Source: an uncultured archaeon | GTDB taxonomy: Archaea > Aenigmatarchaeota > Aenigmatarchaeia > QMZP01 | DNA: 64,000 nucleotides | Direction of reading: 5' to 3' | NCBI GenBank assembly: GCA_964607835.1 | Contig: CAZSLL010000002.1 | Span: 20,014 to 84,013 of the forward strand | Part shown: piece after piece, positions 1 to 54,538 of the stretch | Layout: each line of letters starts with the position of its first letter | How positions within the stretch are numbered: position 1 is the first letter of the stretch | Position numbers and translations under genes: made by a program | The notes under the pieces: model-generated | What the model was told of the DNA's origin: nothing | The model's input: the letters and a program-made list of their open reading frames with translations, nothing else | The model's database searches: none

Positions 1-3000
1 TGGCCATACCTGTACGAGCTCGGCCCGGCGCTGGTGGAGCACTCGGGCGAAACCTTCAGGGAGGCCAGGCCCTGGCAGTTCGCGGTGGACCCGGGCATGT
101 GGCTGGAGTTCGTTTCCCCCACCCCGGAGGACGGGCACTACACCAGCGACCGCTACGCCTTCATAAACGTCTCCCTGAACAGGACAGGCCAAGTCTCTGC
201 CTTCATAGACTGGGACCGCTCCCTGGTCGGGCACTGGGGCTTTGACGAGAACGCGGGCTCTGCTGTGACAGACAACTCCACCTGGGGAAACAACGGTACA
301 GTGATAGGAACCCCGGACTGGACAACGGGCGAGTTCGACTATGCCCTGGGTTTTGACACCACCAACAACATCACCATAGGAAACGCCTCTTCCCTGGACC
401 TGTCGGGAAACATGACCGTGGAGCTCTGGGTGAACTCCACATCTGACTGGTCGAACGTGGAGGCCTGGGTAAACCCCAACAGAACCTACACCACGTGGGC
501 CAACTCATCATTCAGCTACAGGATGCCCTTCGTTATTGAGTCTGACGTTGCCCAGGACGAGTACCAGGTGCTCATTGACCTCATGAACAGCGGTGAGAAC
601 CAGTTCGACTACGACAGGGTGGACAGCGAGGGAAATGACATAAGGTTCTACGACAGCGACAACAACCCCTTGCCCTACTGGATACACTACTGGTGGGACG
701 AGGGCAACTCCACGATATGGGTCAAGACCGACGTCTCTGCGGGCAACACCACCATATACATGTACTACAACTCCTCTGAAATAGACTACAGCGAGTCCAG
801 CGCAGAGGGCGTGTTCACATACGACACCACATACGAGCTCTACATGAACTTCAATGATGACGCAGAGGGTGATACATGGTACGTGGCCTCATACTTCGAC
901 GACACAGACGTTGTATTCGAGGGTCTTGACACCACGCTCTCGGCCAGGGGCAAGGACACCAGTGAGACCATCACAGATAACCACAACACTGTCCAGGCAT
1001 CAGGCCCAATAATGGGCAAGCCCTACGGCGAGGACATGGACGGCCCCATGCCAATATCAAGGTCAGGCACGAAGATAGGCATTGCCTGCAACAGGGGGAC
1101 AGACTACTTCTCTGTTTGCTCCCCGTGGGGCTCCGCTGAAGTGGACGTTGACTGCCAGTCAGGGACAGACGACACAGGCAATTCCGTTTCCGAGGGCACA
1201 TGCATCGAGATAACCGGGGCCAGCTGCTCTGACGGCTCAGGCTACAATGACGCCAGCATACTAATCACGTCTGATATCCCGGTAATCGTGAACTATGACG
1301 GAGGGACCCAGGACACCATGATGCCCGGGGGCTCTGACAGCGCAAGCTTCGCTTCCAGGGCCTTCAGCGGCCACTGGTTCGGCACGGGCAACAACAACGC
1401 AAAGATTACCTCGGTGTCCGGGACAGCCAGCTTTGATGTGTACACCCAGGAGAGCGACGGGGACTATGACTCATCCACCGGAAACTCGGTCAGCGAGAAT
1501 GACGGTGACGACCTCTGCGGATACACCAATTCAGGTACCTGCAGCAGTAACGGCGAGGGCCCTGCCTTCCACATAATCGGCGACAATGTGGCCATGAACC
1601 AGATAGCAGACGGCGACGGAAGCCAGTCCTACACCTGGAGCAAGTACGAGGAGCTTGATACAGAGTACATCATCCCCACCCCGGTCCAGTACATAACCGT
1701 GGCCGCACCGTTCAACAGCACCAACGTGACCATATACACACTCAGCGGCACCTACGTGGACAGCGACCTCATGGGGGGAAGCCAGGACTGGCCCTATCCC
1801 CAGCAGGAGTGCTTCGGCAGCTGTGACGACAGCTCCACATGGCAGAGCGACCTCTGGGTTGTGGCTGACAAGCCCATACACGTCATGTACGAGGACGATT
1901 CAGGAGGCTCGGCCAACGAGGACGAGAGCGAGGCGTGGGGCAGGATTCACGGAAGGCGCTACCACCCCAACGTGAGCCTGCCTGAGATGGGCTCTGAGCA
2001 GGGGTACGACAGGCTCACCTACATGAACACAAGCATGCTCATCGAGAAGGGAGACTCGTTCAGGCTCAGCCTCGTTGACCCCCAGGACCCGGCATCGAAC
2101 ATGGCTGATTCTGCCCTGGTGTCCAACGAATGGCAGCACGTGGCCATGACCTATGACGGCTCCTACATAAGACTCTACATAAACGGGACCCTCATGGAGT
2201 CCAGCGCATTCACAGAGCCGCTTGCCTCGTCTGCCGGGGAAAACCTGAGCATAGGCCTTAACATCAACGCCACAATAGACGAGGTCAGGCTATGGGACAG
2301 GGCCCTTGACCAGCAGGAGATTCAGGCCAGCTACAACGCCAGCGCGAACAGCCTGTACAGGAACTTCACCGGACTCGTGGAGGGAGAGTACAGTTTCTAC
2401 GCCTTTGCCATCAAGGGCGACTTCAACTACACAGAGACCAGGGACATAACCATAGACTACAATGCACCTGGCCTGGAATTCGTGTCCCCCACAGAGGTCA
2501 ACAACAGCTACATATTCCGCAACTACACAGAGGCCAACCTCTCTGTGTCTGACATGCTGAACACCTCAACCCTCATAGACTGGAACTATACCCTGAGGGG
2601 CTGGTGGGATATGGATGCGGAGGTCAATGACATCCTCCAGGATCAGTCGAGTTGGGGCAATGACGCGGAGAGGAAGGGCATAGGGCTGGACAAGCCCAAC
2701 ATCACAGAGGGCATGTTCAACAACTCCGTACTGCTGGACGGCGTCAAGCACTACCTGGATGTGGAGTCCTCCCAAAGCCTGAACATCACCAGGAGAATAA
2801 CTCTGGAGGCCTGGGTCAACACAGACAACGACACCCTCATGGAGATATTGGGCAGGGACGATGACGTAAACAATGAGAGGAGCTATGCCCTTTACATGCA
2901 TGGCGACGGGCTGGCCTCCTTTGCCCTCAGCTCTGACGGCTCCTCGGTGACAGAGCTCAACACCACCTCATCGCTCAATGACGGTGAGTGGCACCACGTC

Positions 3001-6000
3001 GCAGGAACCTGGAACGGAAGCAACATGAGCATATACGTGGACGGCTCCCTTGAGGCCTACACTGATTTCTCAGGGGCCCTGTTCGCCAGCGACGAGAAGC
3101 TCCAGATAGGCAAGCGCAATGCAGAGTACTTCGAGGGCAGGATTGACGAGGTCAGGGTGTGGTCCAGAGCCCTCAGCCAGGGCGAGCTCATGATGAGCAG
3201 GGGCACTGAAGGAATTGACACCCTGGGGAACTTCACCCTTCTGGATGACGGCATGTACAGGTACTATGCCGTATCCACTGACCTTTTGGGCCAGAGGAAC
3301 CAGACCGAGACAAGGTACCTGAACATAAACTCAACGCCTGACCTCATAACCCCGTTCTGGACCAGCAACAGCACCACCGCCATCAACGGCACCACCCACT
3401 ACGCAGAGCTCGTCAACTTTACAGTGACCCTGAGGGACAACTACGTGGGAGGCCAGTTCATATTCAGCTATGACAACGGTAGCGGCACGTTCTACAACAA
3501 CAGCGCCTCATACTGGCTTCACCCCACATACGACGTGGTGTCCCAGAAGAACATAACCGGGACCAAGGGGGATGTGGTGAGATGGCTCTGGTACTTCAAC
3601 GACTCCTACGGCAACATGAACTCCACAGACACCTGGGAGTTCACTGTCGGCAACGCCCCTCCCGAGGCGCCTACCCTTCTCACACCAACCAGCTACGGCG
3701 AGCAGTCAGAGGGTGTGGAGTTCAACTTCACATACTCCGCAGTGGACGTGGACGAAGAGCCCCTGACATACCACTTCTACTTCGACGGCATCCTCAACCG
3801 CTCCACTACAGATACCTATGTCAACATGACGCTTCCAAAAGGCAAGTACAACTGGTCTGTCATGTCGGATGACGGAATTGAGAATTCCAGCATGAGCGAT
3901 GTGTGGTACTTCTACGTCCTCGAGTGGACAGACTGGTGGAACAAGACCTGGGCCTACAGGAACGTGTTCAACATTACCAACACCGCCGGCAACCTGACCG
4001 AGTTCCAGGTCTACCTGGACGAGGTTGACACCACCACCCCGATATCAGAGGGCAAGATGCAGTCAGACTGCAGCGACATAAGGTTCGCCAACGACTCCGG
4101 GCACGAGATTGAGTTCTTCGTTGAGCCAAGGTGGTGCAACGACGACGAGAGCAGGATATGGGTTCAGATCCCGTTCCTGGAGAACGATACCACAACCCAG
4201 CTGTTCATGTACTACGGCCCGCTCTACAACGTGACCTCTCACAGCAACGAGCAGGCCACATTCAACTATACAGAGCGCACCCCTGTACTCATCCCCCTGG
4301 GAACCAACAACGCCATTGGCGGGCTCAACAGCAGCGTCCAGGCCCTGGACAACAACACCAATGCTTCCATAGGCTCCTGGGAGGAGGGGGACATGGACGA
4401 GTACGAGTTCTTCGGCCTCAGGGGCCAGACCGACTACCAGAACACACAGACCCTCAACTCCACTGGCGCTGTGTTCGCAGACCACGTGGGAAATGGTACC
4501 ACCAGCGACAACGGCGCTGCCCCGGGCGATGCCTGGGTTCCCGTGGGATGGGCAGCTTATGAGTACATGTACCCCTTCAACAGGAACTACAACTATTTCT
4601 TCATGTACTCCCCCTACTCTGACGCCTCTGTGGACGTTTACTACAGTTCGGGCACCTCCTGGCCGGGCTCTGCGGACGAGACCATAACCATTCAAAAGGG
4701 AGGCATCAACATTACCACGGTGAACACTGACGGCAATGACGAATCTGCCCTGCGGGTAATATCCGATGCGCCCATCTCGGTCTTCGTCCAGAGCGGCCCC
4801 AGCAACACAGGCATGGGTCGATACTCCCAGGACAACTTCCCTGCCCACACATATGACACAGACCTCTTCGGAATCCCGTCAAGAGCATTCAACATCGTGC
4901 CACTCGAGGACAGCACCCTCATCAGACTGTACTGGGGCGACGGGGTTTCACAGCTCACCCTGTACTTGGATGGCGGGGAGGTGTACGAGCCACCCAGTGA
5001 GTTCATGCTTCCTGACATTGACAACACTGACAGCGAGGGCAGAATTCAGTCAGCCCATCTCTCCGCAAGCGACCCCATCATGGCCGTGCAGACCGCAGAT
5101 GCTGACGGAACCGACGCCACCACCTTCCTTCCGGAGTACGAGCTCAGCTCCAGGTACGTCCTGCCCCAGGACGGCCAGTACCTCACCATTGCAACCGTGG
5201 ACTCGCACACGAACTGCACGCTCTGCACGCCCGCAGGCTCTTGCGAGGACCAGAGCTCCTCCCCTGACATAGACTACCCCTATCCTGACCACCTGTATTT
5301 CGGGAGCGGTACAGACGGTGCCAACATTCCCGAGGGCTCAGTCCTGGACTGTGACGCCGCGGTTTTCGCATACTACGAGAACCAGGGCGACCAGGGCACC
5401 GCCCATGGTGACGAGCACAACATATTCTCCTACAAAGGGATGAGGAAGTACGCGGACCCCTACCCCACCATAGAGGACACAGGGGAGCAGGACATAATCC
5501 CCGAGATTAATGACACCTCTGTCACGCCATCAGCTGACGGCTGGGGCGCGAGGCACAATTTCAGCGTTTACGCATACGACTGGGACAACCAGACCCTCGT
5601 GGTCAGACTCTACTACTCCGGTTCCTCAGGCGGGCCCTGGGAGTACCTGGACTACACGGTGGCGGAGTACGCGGCCACCAGGCACGAGGTCACTGTGGAG
5701 GACGTGAGGTTCGGGTGCTCTGACATAGGGACCCGGTACTTCTACTTCAACACCACTGACAGCGCGGGCCACTCCGCAGAGGCCTACGGCTCCTCCTTCA
5801 CTCTGCAGGAGGATGACGTCACCCTGGAGTACGTGGCAGGCGACGGCCATACCCTCAACAGGAGCGACTCCCGGACAGGCTACCAGACCGATGTCATAAC
5901 CAGGGTCTATGACGACGACAACGAGACCTATGCCTTCACCGACGATATAGTAGCCAAGCTCTGGGTCACAGAGGACGGCTCTGAGTACGACGACATCGAC

Positions 6001-9000
6001 ATAACCACCAACGACACGGGCCACCTCCAGATTCAGTCCACAGGGGGCAAGTTCAACCCTGACTGCAACTACAGCGTGGGTGCGCAGAACTGGTACATGG
6101 AGGTCCAGGAAAGCGACCCCTGCTACAAGTCAGCCATCTCAGGCATCTATGACATATACATAACAGGAGACCTGCAGAACACCATAACATCCCAGAGCGA
6201 GGGCTCTAACGAGTACAACTCAGGTGACACCATAACCTTCGAGGGAACCGTGGTTGACGACTGCGGCAGCACTGTGAGCTCTTCCGACGTGTACTTCACT
6301 GTGACCCAGGGCTTGTCCACCATAGAGGTGTGCCACGCATCCTGGACCGGTTCCCTCTTCAGATGTGTGTGGTCGGACACCTCCGGCCTGGACGAGGGCT
6401 GGTACAACGTGACCATGAACTCCACGGCCCCGTACTACAACCCAGGGGAGGACATGAGGAATTTCTCTGTGACCAGCTACCCCATACTCGAGGATGCCCA
6501 GGTCAACGACACCTCGGTCACCTGGGACAATGCCCTGAACTTCACGGTCAACGTGAGCGACTCTGCAGGGGACTCAGTGAACGTGAGCCTCTACCTCAAG
6601 AAGACCCCCTTCGACGAGTGGAGTTTCGTGGGCAGGACCAACTGCACGAGCTGCTCTGACACGGTGGTGGGTATAGAGGCCTTCTTTGACAGGGAAAACA
6701 TATCAAGCTCCTGGCAGTTCAAATTCAACGCGACCGACAGCACGGGCTACGGCAACCAGGGTGAGGACCCTGGCGGAGGGTTCGAGGTCACCAAGAAGGC
6801 CCTTGAGTGGCACTACATAGAGGGCAACTTCAGCGTGGCCAACCGGACGGGCGCGCAGACCGCCCTGCTCAGCCTGAGGGCGTACGACGCCTCAAAGGGC
6901 GCCTACCTGGGGGCTGACGAGAACGTGACATATTACGTCACCCGCTCGGGCTACCAGTTCGGCCAGTACGACAGCGGGTACAACGTCACCACCGACGCCA
7001 GCGGGTATGCAAACTACTCCTTCAGCCCCGGATGCTCGCCTGAGTACGTGGTTGGGCTCCAGGCATGGAAGGCCGAGCTCATATACCAGCAGGACTATTA
7101 CACAGGCTATGTCTCAGGAGAGTACAACGTCTCGGTGTGGACAGAAATCAACCTAACCACGGTCTATCCCCAGCAGGGCGAAAACCCCACCTACGACTGG
7201 GGAAACAGTATATTCCTCCAGGGCAGGATAACCGATGACTGCGACAACTCCATAGACAACGCTGACGTCACCTTCAACATGACCACAGGAAGCCAGGAGT
7301 ACAGCTTCTCGCCCACGGGCATAGGGGGCGGGCTGTACCAGGGCTCCTGGGACTCCACAGGCGTGGTTGAGGGCCAGTACAACGTGACCTTCTGGGCCAA
7401 CAAGAGCTACTACTACGCTAACCAGACAGTGAACTCCTTCCCTGACTCCTTCTACATCACGACCACGCCCATACTCAAGCAGGCCAACGCAACCCCGAGG
7501 AGCGACGGCTGGGGGGCCGGCTTCAACTTCACCGTCAACACCACGGACGAGCAGTACGACAACGTCACGGTCATACTGGAGACCAAGAGGTACGGGTTTG
7601 ACTGGAGCCAGACAGGTGACTCCCAGAACTGCACCTCCTGCACCAACCACACCTTCACCTGGAACGAGTCCTACACCTGCGGCCTCATGGCGGGCAACCC
7701 CACCAGGTACTTCAGGTTCACGGGCACGGACGACGAAACCAACACCCACATCACCTCTGTGACAGGCGGGGACTACGTGGACGACGACAACACCTATGTT
7801 CTTGAGAAGGACGACGTGTCCATCTCCATCTATCGGGGGGACGGTCTGCTCGTCAACCGTTCCGGGGGCTCGAACAAGGTCACTGTCTTCCTGACCGACA
7901 CTGACAGGGGGGAGTACCTGCACGACTACGAGGCCACTGTTCGAATGAACCTCACCACCAACACCTCCAACCCGGGCTCAGAGAACAGGACAGTCAACAC
8001 CACAACAACTAACGGAACAGGCCACGCCCACATGACATTCTCACTCGGCGGGGACTGCGGCTATGAGGTGGGCAACCAGACGTGGCTTGCCTACATAGAC
8101 ACAGGGGACACCTGCTATATGAACACCACATCACCCGCCTGGAACGTGACCGTGATGGGAGACCTCAACTCATCCATTGACACGGCATCATACATCCGCC
8201 ACCAGGAGGACCTCGTGAACCTCACCATCAACGTAACAGACGAGTGCGGACGATCCCTGTCCAACGTCAACGTGACCTCGATAGTGGTCAAGAACCAGTC
8301 AACCACATTCAGCTGCAACGACACCATAGACTTCGGGAACGGAACCTTCCAGTGCTCCTGGAACACCACCCAGGATACCCCGCCTGCCAGGTATGACGTC
8401 CAGCTCACTATAACCACGAACGAGTCCTACAACAACGCCACCAGGTACCACACCGACGTGGTGTGGCTCCAGAGCTATGTCAATAACCCACCCGGGTTCA
8501 CAGAGCCATCCTACGCCCCTGAGGGATGGGGCGCTGCCATGAACTTCACAGTGCTCGTCCAGGACGTGGACTACAACAACGTCTCTGTGAGGTTCTACAC
8601 CTCCCCTGACGGGGACCATCCCTGGACCCTCAGGGAGACCAAGCTATGCGAGGAGTGTTTCTACGAGTACGTGAACTTCTCCCTCTGGCACACCTGCCCT
8701 GATGTGGGCCAGACCTACTACTTCAAGTTCAACGGCACAGACCAGAACTACACAGGGGACTGGGACCTCACGGGCTCCTCCTCCCCCCAGAGCTACACCG
8801 TGCAGAGGGACAACGTCACCTTCACACTTCTCAATGGCACGGGCTCCCTGGTCAACAGGCAGGGAAGCCAGATGAACTATCCGCCCATAATCGTGAGGAT
8901 GTACGACAGCGACAACCAGACCTGGGTGGGCTCAGGCGTGAACGGCACCCTCTACGTTACCTCAAACAGGAGCGCGGGCTCTGGATACCAGCAGGCCCTG

Positions 9001-12000
9001 CTCAACACCACCAACTCCAGCGGCGGGCTGCATTTCAGCTTTGACCCTGGATGCTCATATGCCCTGGGCGAGCAGGACTGGCTGGCGGGCTCTGTGAACA
9101 ATACATGCTACAGCACCCAGAACATGAGCCTGGCCTCCAACCTGACCATTATGGGCGAGATGCTCCAGCACGTGCTCGAGGCCAACTGCTCGGGCAACAC
9201 CACGTGCTACGCAGACGAGAACGTGACCATGCAGGTCAACGTAACAGACGAGTGCGGGGTTGCTGTTCCGGACGCCTCGGTGAGCATGAACCTAACTCAT
9301 GACAGCTACACAATCAACTGCACCCCTCTGGTGAACCAGGGCTCAGGGCTCTACAACTGCACCTGGAACGTCAGCGACTCCCCTGGCGGGAGTTATGACA
9401 TAGAGCTCTTCACCAACCACAGCAGCCACAACGAGAACCTCACCACCCACGAGGACATGTTCTTCAGGCAGGTCCCTCCCTCCCTTCACACAGAGGGCGC
9501 TGCCCCGGGCTCTGCCTTCTGGGCGCGCTCTGCTGACGGAAGCCCGAGGTTCACCTTCTGGGTGAATGTCACTGACGATGACGACGAGGTCACGGTGGAG
9601 CTCTGGCACTACGACAACGAGTCAGGGGGCGACTGGGAGCTGGCCAACTCCACTGTGCTCAATGATGCAGTTGGCTACAATGTCTCACTTTCCCTGGCCT
9701 ACAGCAGCATACCAGGCGACATAGGCTACTGGAACTGGAAGATAAACGTTTCAGATGAGATGGGCGCGGGGGACGGGACCGGGGAGCACGAGATAGAGGT
9801 CCTCAGGAGGAACCTCAACATCTCGCTCTATTACGGAAACGCCTCGTCTGTGCACAGGATAAGCAACACGACCGTACTCTCTGTCATGGTAAAGGACGAC
9901 TACGACAGCTTCTCGGTTACCCAGGGCACTGGCAGGTTCTGGGTGACCACAGACGGAACAAACTACGGTCCTGAGCAGGTTCCCAGCTACACCGGAGGCA
10001 TGATGAACCGCACCTTCAACCCCGACTGCGTTTACCAGGCCGGGGTCCAGAAATGGAAGGCAGGTGTAAGGGGGAGCAGCCTCTACAATGACAGGAACTC
10101 CTCCTCCTGGCAGGTGGACGTGTTCTCAGACCTCTACCCTGAAGTGGCCTATCCATACGGACAGTCATACCCAAAAGGGAATGCAGTCCCGCTCAGCGGG
10201 AGCCTCTCTGACGAGTGCGGCCAGGTGGCCGGGGCCACCACAGAGTTCGAGGCCTGGATAGACGGGGCCCAGCTCACCCCCGAGTGCACGCCCTCAGACG
10301 AGGGCGGAGGCATGTACAACTGCAGCCAGAGCACTGCCACAGCCACCTCGGGCATAAGCGCCTGGCACAACGTCACCATGAACGCATCCAAGGTCTACTA
10401 CATAGCCAACTACACCCTTGAGGAGGACGTCTTCAGGGTTGCCCAGGAGCCCGACCTCAAGAGTCCTGGCGTGAGCCCGCCCACTGACGGCTGGGGCGTG
10501 AACTATACATTCTCTGTCACCGTCAATGACCAGGACCTTGACGACATCGTCAACGCCAGCTTCTGGACAGCCCGGGCGAGTTCAGGGCCCTTTGAGCTCA
10601 GGGGATACCAGAACTGGACCAGCGATCAGGCAGACCACGACTTCTACTATTACCAGGAGTTCACGTGCTCTGACTACACGGACGGGGTCTCCAATTCCGT
10701 TTACTACAAGTTCAACGGCACTGACACCATCAACTTCTCTGACCAGACAGGGGTCCAGACGCTTTCCCTGCAGAAGGATGACGTGGGCTTCCAGAACGAT
10801 GTCGGCGATTCCATCACTATTGACAGGGAGGGTTCTGTGACAGGGCTCCTTGGCATCCAGGTCTATGACGACGACAGGCCCAATGACCCGGTGCTGGGTC
10901 AGGGAATCAACGTTTCATTCTGGTCCACCAGGGACGGCATCAACTACTATGTCCCCATGTCAAACACAACCAACGGCACGGGATTCGCCTTCTACAGCTT
11001 TGGCCCTGACTGCAACTACTCGGCAGGCTCCCAGACATGGCAGGCCGGCACGAAAGAGAACACCTGCTATGGGGACCAGAACCAGACCAGCCTGGGGCAG
11101 TCACAGACCCTCCTCATCCTGGGCCAGCTCAAGAACTACCTGCAGCTTCCATCATCAAGCGACTTCAACGTAACCGACCAGATTGACATAAGGCTGAACA
11201 TATCCACTGACTGCCCTGTGCAGGACGGCCTGCTTTCAGGCGCCACGGTGACCATAAACCTCACCAACGATGACACAGGAAACTACTCGGAGTGCTCCTC
11301 AGTGGATGACGAGGGGGACGGCTGGTACAACTGCACATGGGACTCAACCGGATTCGAGGAGGGCTGGTGGTCAGTGAACGTCACGGCCAGCCTGGCCAAC
11401 TACAGATACAACACCACCACGTGGTCGGGCAGGTTCTACCTGGACAACCTCAACATGACAGCTGGTAACCAGACCGCACACCCAGCAGAGGGCGGCTGGG
11501 GGACAAACTACACCTACAACATTACAATCAGCGATGCCGAGAGCGACTGGGTGACGTGCTACCTCTGGACCAACACTACAGGCTCAGGATGGGTCCTCAG
11601 GGGCTCTGACGTGGTCCAGGGCTCGGGCAACTGCTCCATCGTGGTCTCCGGGTTCTCATGGACAGACGTGGGCCAGACCAATTACAGGTTCGCAATAAAC
11701 GACACCTTCAACTCCTTCGAGACCGACAACTTCACGGGCCCGCTACTGCATTATGACTACGTCACCATAGGGCACTATATAGGCAACCAGAGCAACGTCA
11801 ACAGAAGCGGCATCCAGAGCACCCTCCTCTCGGTGTTCGTTAACGACACTGACTACGGCTCCCCTCGCTCTGGCATCAACACCACGTTCTGGGTCTCTTA
11901 CACTAACGGCTCCTCTGACTACGACTCAGGCGGGACCGAGACCACAAATGCCTCAGGCCATGCAGGATACCAGTTCGGGCCGGGCTGCAGCTACACAGTG

Positions 12001-24000: not shown

Positions 24001-27000
24001 GATTACGAGTACCTGGCCATCCTCCTCAACGACACTGACAACGTGACAGCAGGCCCGTGGAACCCGCCCGGGGTCAACGTGACCTTCTGGGTCTCGCACA
24101 ACCAGTCCTCTGTTGACCAGGGCAACCTCACCCAGACCAACGGGACAGGCCACGCCAACGTATGGTTCGACCCCGGCTGCTCATATTCCGTGGGCCCACA
24201 GCAGTGGTGGGCCAACGCCACTGATTCCCACTACGAGATGAACAGGACGCAAGGAAACCTCACTGTCATAATCATGGGAAGCCAGAACAACACCATAACA
24301 AGCCCCTCTGGCGGGGAGTATCAGAGGGGCACCAACGTGACAGTGAGGTTCAGTCTCGAGGATGCTGACGGGTGCGGGAGGAACATACCAGACGCCTCTG
24401 TGAACATATCCATGGTGAGCGAGAAGACAGGGCAGGAGTTCTACTGCGCTCATGTCAGCAACGAAGGCCAGGGCTGGTACAACTGCACGTTCAACACATC
24501 CCTCAATCCGGGTGTCATGCCGGCAAGATGGTACAACCTCTCCATCTCCACAGAGAGGCAGTTCTACAACAACCACACAGAGAGGTATGACCACGCCTTC
24601 TGGATTGAGACCAGCCCTGTTCTCAGTCTGGACAGCTACAGTGTGGACCCTCAGGAATCGGGCTGGGGTTCTGAGTTCAATTTCACTGTCAATGTCACTG
24701 ACGAGGACGGCGACACGGTAACTGTCAGGGCATATGAGCGGGCCTACGGGGACTCCACCTGGAACCTGCTAATAGCATCAGGTGGTGGCGACTACTCCCA
24801 GTGCAGCGGTTGCGACAATCATACAATGACCTGGACCAAGTCAGACTATGCCTGCTCGAGCCTCGGGGGCGAGGACAACATTACCAGGGAGTTCTACTTC
24901 AACGCCACTGACAACAGCGATGTGGACGAGTTCCCTGAGGAGGACATGGAGGCCACTGACCCCATGAATTTCACCCTTCTCAAGGGGCCGGCCAGCGTCG
25001 ACCTTGTCCAGGGCAACGCCACCTGGATATACAGGCCAGGTGGCTCTGAAAGGCTCATGATAAGGATTTACGACATTGACAAGGGCGGATACGCAACCGC
25101 CCCCAACCAGAGGGTGTACTTCAACGTCACCACTGACGGCCAGGGCGGCGGCTGGACGCCGAGCTCGCAAAAGTTCTCCAACCTCACGGGCTATGCCTAT
25201 TATGACTTCAACCCCGGGTGCTCGCCCAAGTACGAGACCGGAACCCAGGACTGGAAGGCCTCCCTGGTGGGGGCCCAGTGCTACCAGGACAACACCTCTG
25301 ACCTCTTCGAGGTATACATCTGGACAGACCCGCTGAACATAACCATGGACGTGCCTGACGGTGAGCATTACAGGCGTGCCGTGGACAACATAACGGTCAG
25401 GGCCCACGTGAATGACGAGTGCTCGGGCTCTGCGGGCAATGTGGAGGATGCGACACTCCAGTTCGGGGCCCAGAACGAGCTTGCATGTGTGTACACATGC
25501 ACCCAGCCCAACACCCTTGAGGAGGGCTCGGGTTGGTACCGCTGCAACTTCACCTCGAGCCAGACCTCGGGCTGGGGCGACTCGTGCCTTGGCGACTACA
25601 ACACCACCGCTGTTGCGACAAAGGCCTACTACAACACCTCGGGCACGTTCACTGATCAGGACTCCTTCTGGCTGAGCGAGGTGCCCCAGCTGTCCTGGGC
25701 GCCCACTTGGCACACGGCAGACACCTCCAATGCATGGGGCTCTGGCCACCACTTCTACTACAGGATAAAGGACGGGGAGTCATCCATAGGGGACTCTGTG
25801 GACATATACTTCTGGAAGAGCTACGGCTCGCCAGGCAACTGGACCCTGCTGGGCAACACCACGATCTCGCCGCCCACCCAGGAGAACCACCAGTTCGACA
25901 TCACCTTCAACTGCAGCGACGTGGGAACCAACTACTACAAGATAAACGCCACAGACATGTGGAACGACACCAGCACCACGGCCACGAACAGCTTCGACAC
26001 CCTGAGGAACAGGCTTTCGGTCAACTCCAGGGTGTTCTCAATCGATTCATCTGTGGACAGGGAGGGAAGCGGTTCAGCCCACCTTGCCATGTGGTTCTTT
26101 GACCTCGACGCAGGGGAGACCATAACAGAGGAGGGCATCAACGGCACCATATGGGTAACGGTCAACGGAACCGACACCTCCACCTGGGACAGCGGCATCC
26201 AGAACCAGACCAACTCAACCGGCGACCTTGGGGCATACTTCGACCCCGGCTGCGCGCCGCTCTACATGCCCGGCCTTCACTACTACAAGGGCGGGATTCC
26301 GCTCGGGCAGGACGCATGCTACTACACCCCGGCGAACAGCACCAACCAGAACATGAGCGTGAAGGCCCAGCTCAAGGTCTTCCTAGAGAGGCCTGAGGAG
26401 GGCAACACCAGCATTGTGGGCGACCTCATCCCGTTCAGGTACAACCTGACCTCTGAGTGCGGGGACCTGGTCAACGACTCCACGACAACGATAGAAATGG
26501 GAGACTACGAGGGGGTCTGGGAGTCCTACGTGCCCAGCAACGAGGGGGACGGCTGGTACAACCATACCCTTGACACGGGCTTCCACAAGGGGGGCTGGTG
26601 GGACATCAGGATAAACGCCTCAAGGTCATGGTACTACCGGAACACCACGACCTGGTCTGACTGGTTCTACCTCCAGAACACACCGCCCACCATAGACAAC
26701 GTCTCCGTGAGCCCTGAGGAGGGTCCCTGGGGCGGGGTCTACGAGTACAGCGTCAGGATATGGGACCTTCAGCAGGACAACGTGACGTGCGAGCTCTGGG
26801 TCTCAACAGACGGCGGTGCAAATTACTACATGAAGAACTCGACTGAGATAATATGGGGAAGGGACTGGTGCAACCTCACGGTTGGGGACGCCCTTGACGG
26901 CACGGAGTTCAACTGCTCTGACATGGGAACAGACAACAGATTCTACTTCAGGATAGACGACAAGACAAACATCAACTACACTGACAACATAACTGGCCCC

Positions 27001-30000
27001 AACCTCACGGCTGACACGGCCATGATAACCTACATCCAGGGCAACGGCTCTGTGATAGACAGAGACGACACCTCCCCGGACAGCGAGGCCCTCTACAGGG
27101 TCTACGCCAACGACACGGTCAGGGTGGGCCCTGTGCTCGAGGGGACTGACATAACATTCTGGACCACCTACAACATGTCCCTCTTCGACGACGGCAACTC
27201 GAACCAGACCAACTCGAGCGGATTTTCCAGCTACATGTTCAACCCCACGTGCTCTGAGCCAAAATACGAGGTAGGCCCCCAGGAATGGAAGGCAGGGGTA
27301 ACGGATTCGTGCTACGTCCCTGTGAACACGAGCGACAACTACTCCCTGGAGATATGGGGGAGCATATACGGGACCATAGACAGGCCGAACCCGGGCGCCA
27401 ACACCTTCCAGAGGGAGGCCTCCAACATAACAGTGAGGGGCTACGTGGAGGACGACTGTGTTGACACCAAGACCGGGGTCAACGTGTCATTCAACTTCAC
27501 CCACCTCGACACAGGGAAGTCATACGACTGCCTGTACTACTACACAGAGGCCATCATATACTACAGCTGCGAGCGCAACTCAACAGGAATGAGAGCAAGG
27601 TGGTACAACAACACCATGACCTCCACCATGGAGTACCACTACCCGAACACCACGACAACAGAGTCCAACTTCGAGGTCTTCACCAAGCCCGTCATGCTCA
27701 ACCCCACTGCCCTGACAGACCCGGGCGGGTGGGGCGAGAGGTTCTACTTTACCGTGAACCTGACTGATGAGGACTATGACGAGGTCACGGTCAACCTCTA
27801 CGCAAGGAAATACGGGGAGACCGAGTGGGGCCTTCCAAAGAACGACACCTCCACAGACACAGCCCTCGGGGAGATACTCAGCCTCTCCTTCGAGGACGCC
27901 TACTGCCCGAACATAGGGACCTGGGAGTTCTACTTTGAGTCAGAGGACAACCGCACCCCAATGGGCATGACCAATGACACCGGGGCGGTCAACTTCACCA
28001 TAGAGAAGGACGATGTCTCAGTCGTATACGAGCAGGGCGACGGGTTCTACGTCTGGAGGAACGGCTCTCACAGCAGGAACCTCATAATGAGGGTATGGGA
28101 CAACGACACCAACGACTGGGCGGGCTCTGGCGTGAACTCCACATTCTGGGTTACCAGGAACTCCTCGTCAGGGACCTGGGACCCGGGCAAGTACGAGGTC
28201 AGCAACGCCTCCAGTCACCTTGTCTACGGCTTCACGAGCGAGATACCTGAGTCAGAGTGCAGCTACGAGCTCGGGCCGCACTACTGGAAGGCAGGGACAG
28301 GAGGAATCAACGATGACATGTGCTACAAGCCCGTGAACTCATCCTCATACAACCTCTATCTCAACTCCACGATGTTCCTGACCATACACGAGCCCTACGG
28401 CCAGGGAATACTCTGGGGCACACCCCTCAGCGTGGTGGGCTTCATCGAGGACGACTGCAAGCCGGTTGAGAACGTATCGGTGAGCTGGGAGTTCATCAAG
28501 GGCCAGAACTCATGGACAAGGACCCAGGACCAGGCCAACCAGAGCCAGGGCTGGTACAACTACACCTGGACCGAGACCCAGAGGAACGTGGGCTATTACA
28601 ACATAAGCATGGAGGCTGACAAGGAGTTCTACGGTCCCAACACAACCCTCAAAGAGGACGCCTTCTTCATAGCCCTTGCCCCGGACATACTCTCAACAGG
28701 CATTGACAAGCAGCTCGGGGGCTGGGGCGAGACCTATGACATATGGGTTAGGGTCACTGACGCAGACAACAACTACGTCAACATTACCCTCTGGAAGAGG
28801 CTCCTCAACGAGACAAGCATGGAATGGGGCGACTGGGAGCTCGTGGACCAGAAGTGGCAGGACCAGCTCGGCGCGACATACCTGCACTACTACGAGTACT
28901 TCACGTGCGCTGACATGGGATGGAACCAGTTCAGGTTCAGGGCAGTGGACGAGTTCAACTTCAGTGATGACACCAACAAGACCGTTATAAGCGACTCCCT
29001 CGAGCTCAAGAACAGCTCCCACGCTTTCGGAGCAATTCACGACGCCTCGGGCCAGGCAGACACGGGCTTCGGCCACACAGAGCAGGCCGCGCACTCCGGA
29101 TACTACAAAGAGTTCAACATCACTGTCCACAACCTGAACGGGACTGCAATGTACTTCGACCTCGAGGTGGGAGGGGTCCAGGTGGCCCAGAACCAGAGTA
29201 TGGATGACGGCCAGAACGCCACCATAGACGCCATCGCATCAGTAGGGGCGTTCACACTTCCCGGGGGCACGGATGTCAACCTCACTGTGAGGGACGGCCA
29301 GGGCGGTCCCGCGGGGGCCAATTACACCGCCTACCTCAACACCACCCAGGCCTATCAGGAGTACTCATACAGCGACTACTACTACCTCCCCTACGACACC
29401 CAGTCCTTCAACATCACGGTCCAGAACCACAACGCAAGCACAATGTACTTCGACCTGAGGGTGAACGGGCAGTGGGTGGCCAGGAACCTGAGCGCCGGGT
29501 CAGGGCAGAACGCGAGCTATGATGCCCGCAGGCAGGTAGAGATGGACCTCTCCACTGGCACCCAGAGCATACTCATCAACGTCACCAACAGCTCGGGCTC
29601 CTCGGCTGTCTCGGACTTCTCGGTCTACCTCGACTACGTCACAGGCGTGCACGAGTTCTACCTGCAGGAGGACAACGTCTCGGTCTACCTCTGCGACGGT
29701 TCTGTCTGCTCTCCTGCCAGCAACACGACCGTGAGGAGGGAGTCCTCTCAGGACGCCTACCTGAACATAAGGGTGAGGGACACTGACTTCGGGAGCTACC
29801 CGAGCGGTGTAGACACCAGGTTCTGGGTGACAGAGGACTTCTACAACTACACAGAGTACCTTGACTGCACCACCGCATCAGGCGGGTACTGCGACGAGGA
29901 CTATGACCCTGACTGCGATACGGTCGCAGGGGTCCAGAAATGGAAGGTCCAGACCACAGACTCATGCTACCAGCCCCTCAACACCTCGAGCAAGAACCTG

Positions 30001-33000
30001 GTTGTCTACAGCCAGCTCTACGTGAACTACACCGAGCCCGGCCAGGGCCATGTCCTCAACAGGAACGTGACCTATGACCTCAACGTGACTGTCAATGACG
30101 ACTGCGGGATGTACATAAACGACTCCAGCGTGACCTGGCAGAACGAGTCCTACAGCATCATCAACTACACTGACAACGGCAGCCTTGGCCACTACGCCAC
30201 TGAATGGACAATACCAGAGCCATACCAGCGCGGGCCTGACACCCTGACCATAAACGCCACAAAATCCTATCACGACCTGGGAACCAACACCACAGACATT
30301 CTGATTTACGGGTGGGCCAGCATAGATGCCATGTGGCCGGGCAACGGGACAGAGTACGATGCAGGGGCACTCAGCTCCTGGATAAACTGCCATCTCATTG
30401 ACGTCAACACCAGGCAGTCGATTGAGAGCTACGACGTGGGATTCTACAAGAATGGCGTCTACAATGACACTGACTCCACCAACGCGCAGGGCAACGCCAG
30501 CTGGTTCTGGTACACCGAGTACGAGGATGCCGGCTACTACAACATCTCCTGCCGCATTAATGATGAGGACGTGCTCTACTACAACGTTTCCGTGGGCGAG
30601 AGGCTGAGCAACATAACGGTCAAGAGGCAGCTCATAATCGACCAGATAGAGCTGGACAATTCCACAATATACAGGAACGACAGCTATGACCCCCACCACA
30701 CTGAGCTCAGGGTTCACGTCAACGACGCCCAGATAGGCAACGCCACTGACGCCAACGTGAGCTTCTGGAACAGCACCGCCCCCCTCGGAAACTGCACCAC
30801 AGACCAGTACGGGTGGTGCAACATAACCTACAACGCCAGCGACACCGCCCAGCCGGGCAACTACACAATAATCATAAACGCCACAAAGGTCGGTGTGACG
30901 GACTCAGAGACCGAGGAGGCCTATGTCAAGGTCAAGGGCGTGCTGATGCTGGACATCCTCTCTCCGGTGAACGAGAGCACGCACGCCAAGACAGGGAGCG
31001 TTACCCTTAACGTCAACGTCACTGACGAGGCCGGCAACATAGTCTCTGGAACAGACGTGGAGTGGTGGAACGAGACCTCCATGCTCACTGACCTCCAGAC
31101 ATATCCCAACTTCCCGCTGGTGAGCCAGGAGGCGGGCAACCGCACCATAACGGTATACTCGAGCGAGGACTACTATGACTCGGCCAGCGAGTACGCCATA
31201 ATAACCATCCAGGCCGTGGCTGATGTATATTACATGTCACCGCCAAACATGAGCCTTCTCTCCTACCCCAACGCATTCGACACCCTCTGCAGGGTCAGGT
31301 ACGCCCAGGCGGCAGGCGGCGGCCCGGTCGAGGACTACGAGGTCGAGTTGTACTACTACTGGGAGGACGCTGGGCTGCCCTGGATTTACATCAACAACTT
31401 CACCACCAACAGCACCGGCTACATCACACATTCCTTCAGCCCGTCCCAGAAGGGATACCTCAACCTCAAGTGCAACATAACCGACAACACAAGCAGGCTC
31501 ATCCAGGCAGGGGTCTCAGAGGCACAGGGATACGTAAGGCTCCAGGACGTCATAGAACCGAGCATAACCAACCTCTCCATAGTGCCCAATGCAAGTATAG
31601 AGGCAAACCTCAACTTCACCAACATCACGGCAAACGTGACAGATGACGTGGGCATATACTCTGTGTGGGCACAGATATTCCTGCCCAACGGGACCAGCAT
31701 AAACGTGACCATGACCAACGAGAGCCTTGGCGGGGACCTCTACAGGGTCTCTTATGTGCCTGAGCTCCACGGCCTGCACAGGGTCAGGGTCTGGGCGAGG
31801 GACCTGGGACCCGAGTTCAACGACGCGAGCGAGTGGGCAGGGTACTTCGACGTCTGGGGCAAGATTAGCGGCCTCATCGAGCTCAACGACACTGTGCTCA
31901 TATCGGGAATCACCTACACCCAGGGCGGCCAGTTCAATATGTCCGTAAACTTCACCAACCTCGGCCCGCCCAGCGGATACAGCATTGAGCTGAGGTCACT
32001 GGACGACCCCAATGACACCCTTGTGTTCAACGACACCTACCAGAGCCTTGGAAAGATGTACGTGAACGAGACCTACACCTGGCCCGTGACCGTTGACGTC
32101 CCCGCGGCCACGCCGCCCATCATAATACGGTCTGTGATATACGCCAACTGGACAGACCCTGACCTCACCCAGAACTCCACCATGAACTGGAGCACTGTGT
32201 ACATATCCTCCAACCCGCTACTGGACATAGTGGAGGACTCGCTCACAAATACCACCCCGCACGACAGCGAGCTTCTGTACGTGGGCAGGTTTACGGTGTA
32301 CTCCTCAGGCAACGATGCTGTGGACGACATTGAGCTCTACATGGTCGGGGGCAACCTCAGCACCATGTGCCCTGAATGCGAGGTGGACATAATCCCGTCC
32401 GGGTGGGGAAGGCTCGAGGCAGGCGGGACCTTCAACTCGAGCATATACGTGGACATCCCAGCCGGGCAGGACCCCGGGCAGTACTACACCATCGTGAGGG
32501 CAGACCCGGTCAACACGGAATACGATGACATGGTGCTCACGCTGAACATCCCTGAGAACAAGACCTGGCTCAGGACCCCGTCGAGCTTCTCCAGTGCTGA
32601 TGAGCCCATACTGGCCCTTCTGAACACCACCGACGTCATAGGCAACATCACGGCCACCAGCATAGGCAACGCCAGGATTGTCCTCAAGGTCTACAAGACC
32701 GAGAACGGCTCTGACCTCGTGACCATGGACCCCGAGTACTTCGAGCTGGGCAAGCAAGTCATAAGGAACTCCACAATAAGCTACGTGGTTCCCACCTCAA
32801 AGCCCAAGGGCATGTACTATGTAAAGCTCCTGGTAAGGAACAACACGGCAGACCCCCAGCAGTACGTCACAGACCTCTGGCTCAACGTAACTGACATACC
32901 GCCGCTCATAGAAAACGTCACAGTGGACCCGCTCATATTCGAGGCAGGCTACGAGAACGTGAGCATAGCGGCTGACATCACAGACAACTTCGATGTGGAC

Positions 33001-36000
33001 GAGGCATGGATTAAGGTAATCCAGCCCGACGACTGGCACTACACCAACGACTCCAGGATGATACACAACTCAGGGGGAAGTCCGGATGACGGATACAACC
33101 ACACTGAGCCCCTCATGAGCCAGTACGAGCCACAGCTGCTCTTCTTCAACGTGACCGTGGTCAACAACGATGCCTCCTCCATGGCCATGAACCTCACGGT
33201 AAACGGCCATCTTGTGGCAGAGGACGTGAGCATCCCCCCGGGAAGCAATATCTCTGTTGATGCTGTGGCCAACAACGCCACATTTACCATGCCCGGGGAT
33301 CAGGAAATCAACATTAGCCTTGATGGCAACTACACCTACATGGTCTGGCTGGACTACTCCCTGCTGGACGTTAGCTCGTACATCGAGTACATGAACGACA
33401 CAGAAAAACCCCATTACACCTCCATCTATACATCTGGCCAGGAGGGATTCCATGAGCTCTACATATGCGCCAACGACACAACCGGCCTGGGGGGTTGTGT
33501 GCACTACCAGCTCCTGGCCGCCTCCACCACCCCGCTTTCCATGCTCACCAACATCACCGAGGTCAACATAACAAACATAACCTTCTCCAGCTCAGACTAC
33601 TTCACATTTAACTTCACCGTGGAGCCCCAGTGGGCCAGGGCCCTGGACCTCAACCTGAGCCTGGTCATGGAGAACGGCTGGACCGCCTCCCCAGATTTCA
33701 TAAGGGCAGGGGATGTCCTCAAGGTCGAAAACCACACCAACGAAACCGAGGTGGGCGTGGCCTCGGGCACCCTCCCGGGCAATTATTCGGTCACTCTCCT
33801 CGCCAACTGGACCGAGCTCAACGGATGGACCAACGGAACCAACCAGACCAGCATACTGGTCATGGTCCAGGCCAACCCCTCCATCATAATCGTGGAGGAC
33901 TCCCTGAACTACAACATACGGGGAGGGAACTCTGACAACAGGACCATGAACCTGTTCAGCAACGGAAACGCCAACGCCACAAACGTGACCTACAACTGCA
34001 CCTGGGGCGAGGTGTGCCAGAACTTCACGGTGTCCTTTGACCCTGTCAATATCTCGGTCATGCAGCCCGGGACCACCCAGGGGGTCAACGTGACCATTGC
34101 CGTTCCCACGCTCTACGAGGCCAGCGAGACCGGGTACCCTGGCATAGTGGAGGTCACCGAGGCCAGCGGCTCCTCTGACACAGTATACATAGTGGTAACC
34201 GTGCCCATCAACCTCTCCTGGGAGCACGACCCCGAATCCCTTATCGTCAACCTGAGCCACGACACCTCAGGCGTGCTGGGGGAGATAGACGTCAGGAACA
34301 TAGGCAACGCCCATGTGCTACTGGAGGTGGTGCAGTCAGGCAATGGGACCCCGTACATGCCCCTGGACAGGGATGAGCTCTCCCTGGATATCCTGGAGAG
34401 GGACACCATAACCGTGAACTACAGCCTGCCCTACCTCGCGAACGTGGTGACCTACCAGAGCATGATAAGGACAGAGAACCTCACAGCAGACCCCACCTTC
34501 AGGCAGACCATGGTCACGGCAAATATCTTCCCGTTCTCCATGAACCTCACCTACCCCACACGGCAGAATCCGGTCATGAACGTGTCCGGCAACAGCACAG
34601 TGCACGCCCTCATCAACGTGACATATGCAGGAGAGCCCCTCAACACGAGCGTGGCCTTCAATCTCACCCTGTTCAACGCAACAGGGAGCTGGCCCCTCAA
34701 CATCACCAACGCGACATACTCGAACTACACCGGGCTCTGGAACGTGACCTTTGTGGCGCCCAACATAAGCGAGAACAAGGGATATGACCTCAACGCCAGC
34801 GCCGTGTACGAGCCCGCGAACATATGGCTCCATGACATGGAGCAGAAGGCCGTTATTTACATAGACCGGATCGCCCCTTATGTGGCAATAGACGTGGCCC
34901 CCAGGGTGCCCCAGAACTCCACTGCATACATATACATCAACGTCACTGATTCAGGAGGGGTCTCCAGGGCAGAGCTCAACATGTCCTTCCCTGACAACTC
35001 CACCACGGGATTCCAGGCCGAGCTTGTTAGCAAGAGCGGTGACCTCTACCGGTTCCTGGTCAAGACCAACCTCACAACCCAGATAGGCATGTACTACCTC
35101 AACGCCACTGCATGGGACCTCTCTGAGAACTGGAACTACTCAGAGGCCACCTTTGAGATATACCCGGCAGTGGTGTGGTCAGGCAACTCGGTGGACATGG
35201 AGAAGATACACAGGCCGCCCTTCAACCTCAATTTCACTTTCTGGCTCTCCGGCACCTCTTTCGAGGCCTACAACTTCACCACAGAGCCCGCGGGCCACTA
35301 CAACGAGACCCTTGACATGAGGCCCTATGATATTGGGGTGGGCTTCAGGAACGAGACCCTGACCATGTACGAGGCAGACCTGGTGCAGGACGTTTACAAC
35401 CCCGTGCTCTTCGGAAAGATACCAAGCGTCAAGCTGCCGAGGAAATCCCTGAAGGGATACTATATATACACCACCCCGGTCAACTACAGCTACGCAGGCC
35501 TGGTCATTGACTGCGAGGAATGCTATATTGACGGGGAGTGCAAGGTTTCTGACTTCACCCTTCAGAACCTGGGGCTCTACCGCTGCGACGCCTGGCAGCC
35601 CATGGAGGGATGCACAGGCACATGGTCTGCCATGGACAGCAGCGTGAACGCCAGCCTCTATACCATATCAGTAAACTCCACCTCCATGACCGGGGCATAT
35701 GTCCTGGCCGAGTGGCTGTGCGGGGACGGCGAGTGCGAGGAGGACAAGGGGGAATCCTTCGCCACCTGCCCCACTGACTGTGAGCTGGACATACCAGAGG
35801 AGCAGGAAGGGGGCGAGAGCGGCGGTGGCGGGGCCTCAGGCGGCGCGGCAGGAGGCGCGGCAGGCGGAGCAGCAGGCGAGGAGATATCCCTGTCAGGCCC
35901 TGTGGAGGTCAAGACCACACTCATTGACATAATCCTGGGCCAGGGCGAGTACGAGATACACTCCATGGAGATAGTGAACAGCCAGCCGACCTCCATATCC

Positions 36001-53449: not shown

Positions 53450-53464
53450 TATTACACTACGCCA

Positions 53465-54522: not shown

Positions 54523-54538
54523 CCTGAGACCGGTTGGC

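Follow-up and report, generated by a model that had tools for sequence, protein, structure and literature searches.

A very large SPEARE-family protein ending in a membrane-anchored HerA-clade ATPase is encoded on an Aenigmatarchaeota contig

In the stretch of DNA analysed here (64,000 nucleotides of contig CAZSLL010000002.1, assembly GCA_964607835.1, from an uncultured archaeon assigned to the Aenigmatarchaeota; hereafter the window) one giant gene occupies the first 37,758 nucleotides. Its product is an unusually large member of the SPEARE family, a known architecture and not a new kind of system, in which a very long ectodomain is followed by one transmembrane (TM) helix and a cytoplasmic P-loop ATPase. 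We hold both the family identity and the topology with high confidence. DPANN archaea are very small symbionts whose genomes are reduced, and their manner of attaching to hosts and exploiting them is still largely mysterious. Giants of the SPEARE type are leading candidates for the machinery of contact between DPANN archaea and their hosts, the family reaches well beyond halophiles, and in the present case at least ~38 kb of a small genome are spent on a single gene. The additions made here are modest: the placement of the ATPase in the HerA clade, the lack of type IV secretion system (T4SS) genes nearby, a near-universal coiled-coil partner and a frequent second surface protein, to which can be added a size beyond that of the published members, a lineage nearest to Aenigmatarchaeota and a family breadth of at least 562 related metagenomic loci.

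SPEARE proteins were described in Nanohaloarchaeota by Hamm et al. 2019 (PNAS, PMC6642349) as proteins that reach 8,553 aa, most of it extracytoplasmic and built with laminin-G and adhesion domains; a TM helix is found close to the C-terminus, and the most conserved part is an intracellular P-loop domain which was originally annotated as a type III restriction enzyme. The same study reported short versions of 655 and 717 aa and noted SPEARE-like sequences in Woesearchaeota, Aenigmarchaeota, Micrarchaeota and Altiarchaeales. It also found that the SPEARE of Ca. Nanohaloarchaeum antarcticus is expressed, its ectodomain being detected by mass spectrometry, with the peptides of the ectodomain and those of the TM-plus-cytoplasmic part recovered in different size fractions. 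Reva et al. 2023 (Front Microbiol, PMC10266531) later described giants of 9,409 and 8,880 aa in cultured nanohaloarchaea, which begin with a Sec signal and an immunoglobulin (Ig)-repeat ectodomain of ~1 MDa with ~75 Ig-like domains, continue through a TM helix into a cytoplasmic 'VirB4/TraG-like ATPase' and end in a coiled coil; in both organisms, SVXNc and BNXNv, a second VirB4/TraG-family ATPase with PF03135 lies immediately downstream. These authors rejected the nuclease and protease annotations of SPEARE and argue that such domains are absent family-wide, for which reason they are not valid as a defining feature of the family. They proposed host binding coupled to ATP-driven secretion, that is, a T4SS-like 'straw' that injects effectors (PMC10266531). 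In surveys of huge proteins the archaeal giants typically carry Laminin_G_3 and the ATPase is not mentioned.

The last 800 residues of the window protein were compared by BLASTP with the SPEARE C-terminus given in SI Fig. S18 of PMC6642349, and the two aligned with E = 6e-110 over 758 aa (33% identity, 53% positives), through the stalk, both beta-sandwiches, the TM helix, the ATPase and the tail. It is because of this C-terminal homology, and of the match with the published plan, that we recognize the giant protein as a SPEARE architecture. An earlier interpretation of the window made from the letters alone (the sequence-only reading) had taken such an architecture to be undescribed, which was mistaken since the family has been known since 2019, and its idea of contact-dependent transfer is essentially the proposal of Reva et al. 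(PMC10266531). The window protein and the published members have in common a long laminin-G/Ig ectodomain, one C-terminal TM helix, a cytoplasmic P-loop ATPase and a terminal coiled coil, and short versions of ~650-720 aa exist in the family. The published members are smaller (NAR1_1133, 5,998 aa; Nanopetramus SG9, 8,553 aa; SVXNc_0300, 9,409 aa; BNXNv_0298, 8,880 aa). Unlike the lineages that encode them, the window lineage is of non-halophile type, with 57% GC, and the window ectodomain differs from theirs in having DUF2341 domains and a repeat unit of ~335 aa. Moreover, unlike in SVXNc and BNXNv, the gene after the giant one encodes a coiled-coil protein and not a VirB4/TraG-family ATPase.

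Frame +1 of the window contains no stop from base 1 until 37756-37758, which gives at least 12,585 sense codons, and exits through the left edge. The N-terminus and the signal peptide of the protein fall beyond this edge and its total length is therefore a minimum. The base composition predicts a stop probability of 0.035 per codon (one per ~28 codons), so that a run of this size has a chance of ~10^-195. No comparable open frame was found in the other frames or on the other strand within the span of the giant gene, and the next-largest open frames of the window (1,962 and 1,389 codons) are both located downstream of it. Over its last 3,749 codons the frame runs collinear with an independent contig from a metagenome-assembled genome (MAG), locus L006, with gaps in 32 of the 3,765 aligned columns, and the dN/dS values against this contig (0.24 in the ectodomain and 0.15 in the ATPase) show purifying selection across the junction between the two. 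The giant gene is confirmed as real, with a product longer than 12,585 residues, and the sequence-only reading was right in reporting one uninterrupted frame of more than 37.7 kb that is open to the window edge.

A search of the window against itself (self-blastn and repeat search) revealed a single repeat pair at the DNA level in the giant gene, 20338-21278 and 23410-24350, with 94.8% identity over 946 nt and an offset of 3,072 nt that equals three repeat units of the protein. This pair suggests a recent gene conversion or duplication. As the repeats have otherwise diverged at the DNA level, large-scale mis-assembly is unlikely, and the only soft spot of this short-read assembly is the copy number of three repeat units, which is uncertain. 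For the N-terminal 600 aa of the visible protein no close homologs were present in the word-indexed database.

The fusion of ectodomain and ATPase is conserved across relatives and is not an artefact. In the database gene calls of close relatives the ATPase appears as a separate open reading frame (ORF) of 400-620 aa, one relative has an in-frame stop, and the giant gene itself contains the 946-nt near-identical pair described above, all of which could be expected if the region was mis-assembled or pseudogenised and adhesin and ATPase were really separate genes. The separate calls, however, are explained by runs of N or by contig edges that split the frame: in loci L001, L003 and L005 it is broken only by N runs within scaffolds, and L004 starts at a contig edge. 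Three N-free MAG contigs (L006, L007 and L008) hold one frame from the edge of the locus through the ATPase (at least 3,749, 3,749 and 1,913 aa, respectively, at 73-86% identity), and the separating stop or frameshift which the sequence-only reading had allowed for is found in none of them. A relative with 86% identity is found on contig CAZAEI010000002.1 (97.6 kb). Of 88 related loci, 78 show no interruption of the frame up to their upstream edge, and in 36 of these the TM-ATPase module is preceded by 3,000 residues or more. A full-library HMMER search retrieved 364 cluster representatives at E <= 1e-30; the top 150 of these measure 356-7,852 aa, with the ATPase mostly at or near the C-terminal end and, in some, with residues beyond it. 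Many relatives are complete (2,000-7,852 residues) and present an N-terminal signal-like segment, one TM helix and then the ATPase. Given these complete fused proteins and the purifying selection that spans the junction, we regard an artefactual fusion as extremely improbable.

The stop mentioned above was observed in locus L002 (Ga0115863_1004635), an otherwise intact relative, at ~nt 175-180. There, one in-frame stop takes the place of a conserved Tyr codon (GDIIT*IGNY, compared with GDIITYLSDG in the window), 116 codons upstream of the TM-ATPase module; it could be a sequencing error, a pseudogene or a case of read-through.

The segment AIFWNWVTYVVMFFMVPAA is the sole strongly hydrophobic peak in the hydropathy profile of the whole protein, it forms a helix in the AlphaFold2 (AF2) model, and the run KSKKKKKSR comes after it, as expected from the single TM helix and poly-Lys stop-transfer signal claimed by the sequence-only reading. 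A further motif, ARYxxPxDxKKLP, follows this run and is kept in the family. Between the TM helix and the ATPase core there are ~40 residues, and Walker A is preceded by no more than two short strands. In the cytoplasmic domain of ~360 residues Pfam placed DUF87 (PF01935, the HerA central domain) at 38.3 bits against a gathering cutoff of 23.2, and HerA_C at 25.8 bits against 22. When a profile of 44 homologs was searched against the PDB, Sulfolobus HerA (4d2i) came first with E = 1e-10, the coupling proteins and FtsK being weak (E = 0.02-0.2) and the FtsK chains (E = 0.04-0.24) limited to the P-loop. The AF2 model of the cytoplasmic domain (pLDDT 89.5, pTM 0.84) led to the same structures, since Foldseek against the PDB returned HerA 4d2i, Sir2/HerA and HerA-NurA on top (E ~5e-12 to 5e-11), followed by the pCW3 coupling protein TcpA and the STIV packaging ATPase B204. 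The Walker A and Walker B motifs quoted in the sequence-only reading (GSTGAGKS and LFIVYDEVH) are present in the translation, and its assignment to HerA/FtsK-like ATPases is upheld by these profile and fold matches. All 44 homologs retain the Lys of Walker A, the Asp-Glu of Walker B and a REFRKWG motif without change.

We conclude that this domain is a distinct membrane-anchored clade of the HerA/FtsK superfamily, nearest to HerA and outside every named functional family, because Pfam, PDB profile and fold comparison all point to HerA as the closest match and the named equivalogs remain far below their cutoffs. The HerA equivalogs of NCBIfam scored ~25 bits (cutoffs 800-970), CedD 27.3 bits (cutoff 600, over 48 residues around Walker A), TraC, TraD and CD1110 13-16 bits (cutoffs 325-567), and TraB was also far below its cutoff. 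The giant protein has no Pfam match to PF03135 (VirB4 N-terminal) or PF10412, and none to PF01580 (FtsK motor) at E <= 0.01; no polytopic membrane partner of the CedA type exists in the window cluster. With HerA (HerA-NurA and the Sir2-HerA and DUF4297-HerA defence systems) the window ATPase shares the Walker A/B and DExH-type motifs, at 12-18% sequence identity to the solved HerA structures. Unlike HerA, it is tied to the membrane by the TM helix that directly precedes the core on its N-terminal side, the ATPase region has no HAS-barrel domain as found in true HerA, and neither NurA, Sir2 nor DUF4297 was found among the window neighbours. A HerA of a defence system and a viral packaging ATPase were both considered and discarded, the PADLOC and PHROG matches being weak, and no relatives were found in viral contigs.

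Several ring-forming motors of this superfamily, namely FtsK/SpoIIIE, Streptomyces TraB, the type IV coupling proteins TrwB/VirD4/TcpA, type VII EssC/EccC and CedB, move DNA or protein across or along membranes. The window protein resembles FtsK/SpoIIIE, TraB, the coupling proteins, EssC/EccC and crenarchaeal CedB in the order of an N-terminal membrane anchor and a cytoplasmic P-loop motor, but these anchored translocases have no giant ectodomain. Conversely, the FtsK gamma domain, the all-alpha domain of TrwB and the multiple nucleotide-binding domains and FHA of EssC are absent from the window protein, which has a single TM helix instead of the polytopic N-terminal domain of FtsK/SpoIIIE.

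Short forms of ~700-730 aa were also found in the family (proteins P0047, P0054 and P0094; loci L009, L086, L088, L089 and L091). They consist, in this order, of a signal peptide, the Cys motif, a Pro/Gly linker, two beta-sandwiches, the TM helix, the ATPase and a helical tail, and in the giant forms this module is extended by thousands of residues placed behind the signal peptide. We call base module the part formed by Cys stalk, linker, two beta-sandwiches, TM helix, HerA-clade ATPase and helical tail. The Cys-rich stalk is the start of what giant and short-form relatives have in common, and its Cys motif comes right after the signal peptide in P0094 and P0047. At the position of the Gly/Ala-rich linker the relatives have Pro/Gly-rich linkers, and the juxtamembrane beta-sandwiches are kept across the family with the motif LPTTxPGIYxG. 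Since short forms exist without the fibre, the core function belongs to the membrane-ATPase module and its partner, the ectodomain being an add-on. The core of the family is thus fixed and its exterior variable, and the module with its partner is more informative than the variable fibre.

In one woesearchaeotal locus (L011; GCA_021734865.1, JAIPIC010000001.1, 1-10100) the base module forms the end of a gene called at 15,808 aa, after which comes, with a 4-nt overlap, a short-form paralog of 699 aa; the coiled-coil partner lies further downstream, as does a gene whose product exceeds 4,143 aa. A Rosetta-stone interpretation of this locus, with a giant next to a separate ATPase, was abandoned as the giant has its own terminal TM-ATPase and the gene beside it encodes a short paralog. 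That giant and short forms would as a general rule assemble into mixed hexamers was likewise dismissed, two ATPase copies being seen in L011 only among the loci inspected.

The ectodomain of the window protein contains two DUF2341 and two Laminin_G_3 domains by Pfam, in agreement with the sequence-only reading, and a long tandem array. A jackhmmer search of the protein against itself gave 27 matches, corresponding to ~23 full and four partial units of ~335 aa, which are 20-28% identical to the reference unit. One unit was modelled with AF2 using the window's own units as alignment, and the model was all-beta with a pLDDT of 78; its best Foldseek matches in the PDB included tandem Ig domains (PECAM), fibronectin type III (FnIII) domains (RbmA), complement MG domains and the giant adhesins SiiE and MpIBP. 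From this model each unit appears to comprise roughly three Ig/FnIII-like beta-sandwiches. The ~24 Ig-like units that had been counted earlier are therefore about right in number and in kind, but each of them would hold about three sandwiches and not a single domain. The Cys-motif stalk of that account is likewise present, as a Cys-rich region. No WD40/PQQ propellers and no toxin-like or protease-like domains were detected in the ectodomain, and the giant protein as a whole has no Pfam or NCBIfam match to protease or nuclease domains.

The whole protein has 645 N-X-S/T sequons. Their density per 100 aa before the TM helix is 5.26, where 1.49 would be expected from composition, which means a 3.5-fold enrichment in the ectodomain, and after the helix it is 1.11; Lys and Arg together make up 4.5% of the residues outside and 16% inside. 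Both patterns are as expected for an N-glycosylated exterior and a cytoplasmic interior, so that the ectodomain is potentially glycosylated, as had been claimed. Megadalton surface proteins with many tandem beta-sandwiches are also known in SiiE, MpIBP, the LapA-type RTX adhesins and halomucin, but these are secreted by type I or Sec pathways, are retained non-covalently or by an N-terminal plug, and have no cytoplasmic ATPase.

Directly after the ATPase gene the window encodes a protein with no TM helix, no Cys and two sequons, whose homologs occupy the same position in 86-88 of ~90 loci, those of the short forms included. It has a conserved coiled-coil core (aa ~215-490) flanked by disordered linkers rich in Pro, Glu and Ala and by short helices of the type 'G-x-I-S-x-x-E-Y'. 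The PDB profile search gave generic coiled-coil matches only, and an assignment of these helices to SHOCT or CdvA was rejected since the Pfam matches are sub-threshold. In the literature searched no mention was found of this partner gene, of the operon or of a distribution beyond halophiles. The next gene encodes a second surface protein, with a signal anchor, an ectodomain of 93 sequons (NEW3/MG2-like), a C-terminal TM helix and a cytoplasmic tail of ~90 aa with a SHOCT-like helix; a glycoprotein-like surface protein of ~1,960 aa comes next in most loci, and many related loci have near full-length homologs downstream. Among the conserved neighbours no T4SS component, nuclease, DNA-binding protein, pilin or polytopic channel was recognised. 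The neighbourhood visible in the window amounts to 26 kb downstream of the giant gene.

Taken together, we find it likely that the protein is a SPEARE-family giant in which an adhesive fibre stands on a membrane-anchored HerA-clade ATPase that works with a partner. The Ig-repeat ectodomain would be the fibre, reaching a host or partner cell or a surface, and with roughly 80-120 domains it could extend over several hundred nanometres. By analogy with other ATPases of the HerA/FtsK superfamily, the cytoplasmic domains would assemble into a hexameric ring under the membrane, bundling up to six TM helices and fibres, and the ring would work with the cytoplasmic coiled-coil protein that is nearly always co-encoded. 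ATP hydrolysis would then drive the passage of a polymer (DNA or protein) through the membrane at the site of contact, or else a mechanical remodelling of the anchor or work on the partner. We infer the hexamer, the ATPase activity and the substrate from superfamily membership only, and translocation of DNA or protein at the contact site, which is suggested by the same analogy, is put forward tentatively, at somewhat below even chances. Some points speak against the reading as a whole. All support for the giant protein is computational. The HAS barrel of true HerA is absent, because of which ring assembly could differ, and as no nuclease, DNA-binding, pilin or channel neighbours were recognised, translocation of DNA or protein has no independent support. 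The mature protein may also be cleaved, leaving the ATPase untethered, since the peptide fractions of Nha. antarcticus differ (PMC6642349).

The 'straw' of Reva et al. 2023, in which the fibre binds the host and a VirB4/TraG-like ATPase powers the injection of effectors, has in its favour that it was published for homologous nanohaloarchaeal giants with a second PF03135 ATPase immediately downstream (PMC10266531). The window ATPase also belongs to the superfamily of VirB4 and VirD4, it has weak NCBIfam matches to TraC, TraD and a VirB4-like family (E = 0.002-0.03), and the coupling protein TcpA is among its Foldseek matches. However HerA, and not VirB4, comes out first in Pfam, PDB profile and fold comparison, neither PF03135 nor any other recognisable T4SS component occurs in the 26 kb downstream, and the gene immediately downstream encodes a coiled-coil protein and not an ATPase. 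Furthermore, one TM helix per subunit without VirB3/6/8-like partners is not a T4SS channel. As the defining parts are absent here, we judge a bona fide T4SS improbable, and a HerA-like ATPase with no T4SS genes nearby offers a concrete and testable correction to the published model. The original proposal of Hamm et al. 2019, a type III restriction enzyme for breaking down imported DNA of the host, can draw on the first SPEARE annotation (PMC6642349) and on the precomputed ResIII (PF04851) and DEAD matches that some homologs have over the P-loop region. These ResIII matches cover the helicase-type P-loop only, no nuclease domain was found in the giant protein by Pfam or NCBIfam, and the re-analysis of SPEARE by Reva et al. 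2023 found no endonuclease domain either (PMC10266531), so that a restriction enzyme is scarcely credible.

A different role without any translocation can also be envisaged, in which the ATPase ring and a coiled-coil scaffold cluster, position or tension the giant glycoproteins of the cell coat as an envelope organiser and control adhesion from the inside out. It would agree with an invariant partner that is a long cytoplasmic coiled coil, with the SHOCT-like helices in the tails of the 1,961-aa and 1,367-aa proteins and in small proteins of related loci, with the MinD/ParA-like positioning ATPases of 28 related loci and with the lack of recognised channel or substrate genes. On the other hand, the SHOCT-like motif was recognised by eye and through sub-threshold Pfam matches only, and the HerA/FtsK-superfamily rings that have been characterised do translocate a polymer. 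The strict conservation of the catalytic residues fits a translocase as well as an organiser. We therefore favour, among these possibilities, a translocase at the contact site, followed by an organiser that does not translocate, which we consider unlikely though worth keeping in view, with the T4SS lower. In its widest form the favoured reading would make the base module and the coiled-coil partner, usually with the ~1,960-aa surface protein, a DPANN-wide envelope-spanning apparatus distinct from T4SS, with a ring that translocates host-derived DNA or protein at contact and with ectodomains of none to ~15,000 residues grafted on; we offer this generalization as a rather doubtful one. The features of the giant gene and of the genes next to it are given in Table 1.

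Table 1. Position and supporting evidence of the features identified in the window
Feature	Position	Strand	Residues	Evidence or remark
Giant gene, SPEARE-family type I membrane protein	1..37758	+		5'-truncated by window edge
DUF2341 domain 1	631..858	+	aa 211-286	Pfam PF10102, 45.7 bits vs cutoff 23.4
Laminin_G_3 domain 1	2029..2325	+	aa 677-775	Pfam PF13385, 71.4 bits
Laminin_G_3 domain 2	2740..3186	+	aa 914-1062	Pfam PF13385, 110.5 bits, plus Laminin_G_2
DUF2341 domain 2	4066..4269	+	aa 1356-1423	Pfam PF10102, 47.8 bits
Tandem array of ~335-aa all-beta repeats	5329..31647	+	aa 1777-10549	jackhmmer, AF2, Foldseek
Span with DNA-level repeat pair	20338..24350	+		self-blastn, repeat search
NEW3/NPCBM_assoc beta-sandwich	33934..34122	+	aa 11312-11374	Pfam PF10633, 29.3 bits vs 24.4
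Cys-rich stalk including motif CGDGECEEDKGESFATCPTDC	35512..35781	+	aa 11838-11927	translation
Gly/Ala-rich flexible linker	35809..35877	+	aa 11937-11959	translation
Two juxtamembrane beta-sandwich domains	35896..36555	+		family alignment consensus; align with SPEARE
Single TM helix AIFWNWVTYVVMFFMVPAA	36568..36624	+	aa 12190-12208	hydropathy, AF2 long helix
Positive-inside stop-transfer run KSKKKKKSR	36655..36681	+		translation
Cytoplasmic HerA-clade P-loop ATPase	36682..37548	+		Pfam, PDB profile, AF2, Foldseek
Walker A GSTGAGKS	36814-36837	+		translation
Walker B LFIVYDEVH	37186-37212	+		translation
C-terminal three-helix/coiled-coil tail	37549..37755	+		AF2 helices H348-413 of 416-residue model
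Coiled-coil partner, cytoplasmic	37954..39903	+	649 aa	sequence features, homologs downstream of ATPase
Second surface protein	39893..45778	+	1,961 aa	Pfam, sequence features, homologs in related loci
Single-domain KaiC-like ATPase	45775..46602	-	275 aa	Pfam KaiC, 182.5 bits
Third surface protein	46639..50742	-	1,367 aa	Pfam, sequence features

The third surface protein has a signal peptide, Laminin_G_3 and NEW3/CARDB-like domains, TM helices and cytoplasmic coiled coils, and its homologs were found in loci L012 and L014. The KaiC-like ATPase of Table 1 is kept beside the cluster in the closest relatives only (75% identity in L006 and 61% in L013). A second single-domain KaiC-like ATPase (53854-54522, +), 27% identical to the first, was also identified, the pair flanking the surface-protein cluster. 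Genes for a sulfatase, an FG-GAP protein and a UbiA/polyprenyl synthase are located at 50826-57240, and at 57895-63999 on the minus strand there are a response regulator and three sensor genes, which encode a dCache-HAMP-HisKA-HATPase kinase, a dCache-HAMP protein and a multi-PAS protein truncated at the edge of the window. For the UbiA-family gene the matches found had 46-47% identity.

The named relatives of the giant protein come from MAGs of Aenigmatarchaeota, Woesearchaeota and Nanoarchaeota, the closest being from Aenigmatarchaeota, and among the genes of related loci there are archaeal markers (histone, aIF5A and deoxyhypusine synthase). The 64-kb window itself has no match to a tRNA or Rfam family and contains no marker gene. 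Published Aenigmarchaeota MAGs have 25-48% GC and 0.5-0.9 Mb. A GC content of 57% and this richness in sensory genes are unusual for such MAGs, and the host lineage may therefore be atypical or the taxonomic label loose.

A helix of the form 'G-x-I-S-x-x-E/A-Y-x-x-x-K...L' was observed in three copies in the coiled-coil partner, in the cytoplasmic tails of the 1,961-aa protein (45400-45778) and the 1,367-aa protein (46639-47700, -), and in ~98-aa proteins that occur as pairs in 17 related loci (e.g. L040 5995-6587 and L056 13037-13791). Judging from its recurrence, this SHOCT-like helix may be a shared cytoplasmic docking motif.

Two further genes occur in related loci and not in the window. 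A MinD/ParA-like ATPase of ~253 aa is encoded near the giant gene in 28 related loci, and a membrane protein of ~155 aa with HExxH inside a TM helix is likewise encoded in 28 related loci; examples are L028 (5533-6294 and 8728-9207) and L033 (12958-13719 and 15828-16286). The HExxH protein looks like an intramembrane metalloprotease, and such a protease-like gene deserves mention because the published proteomics suggested that SPEARE is processed.

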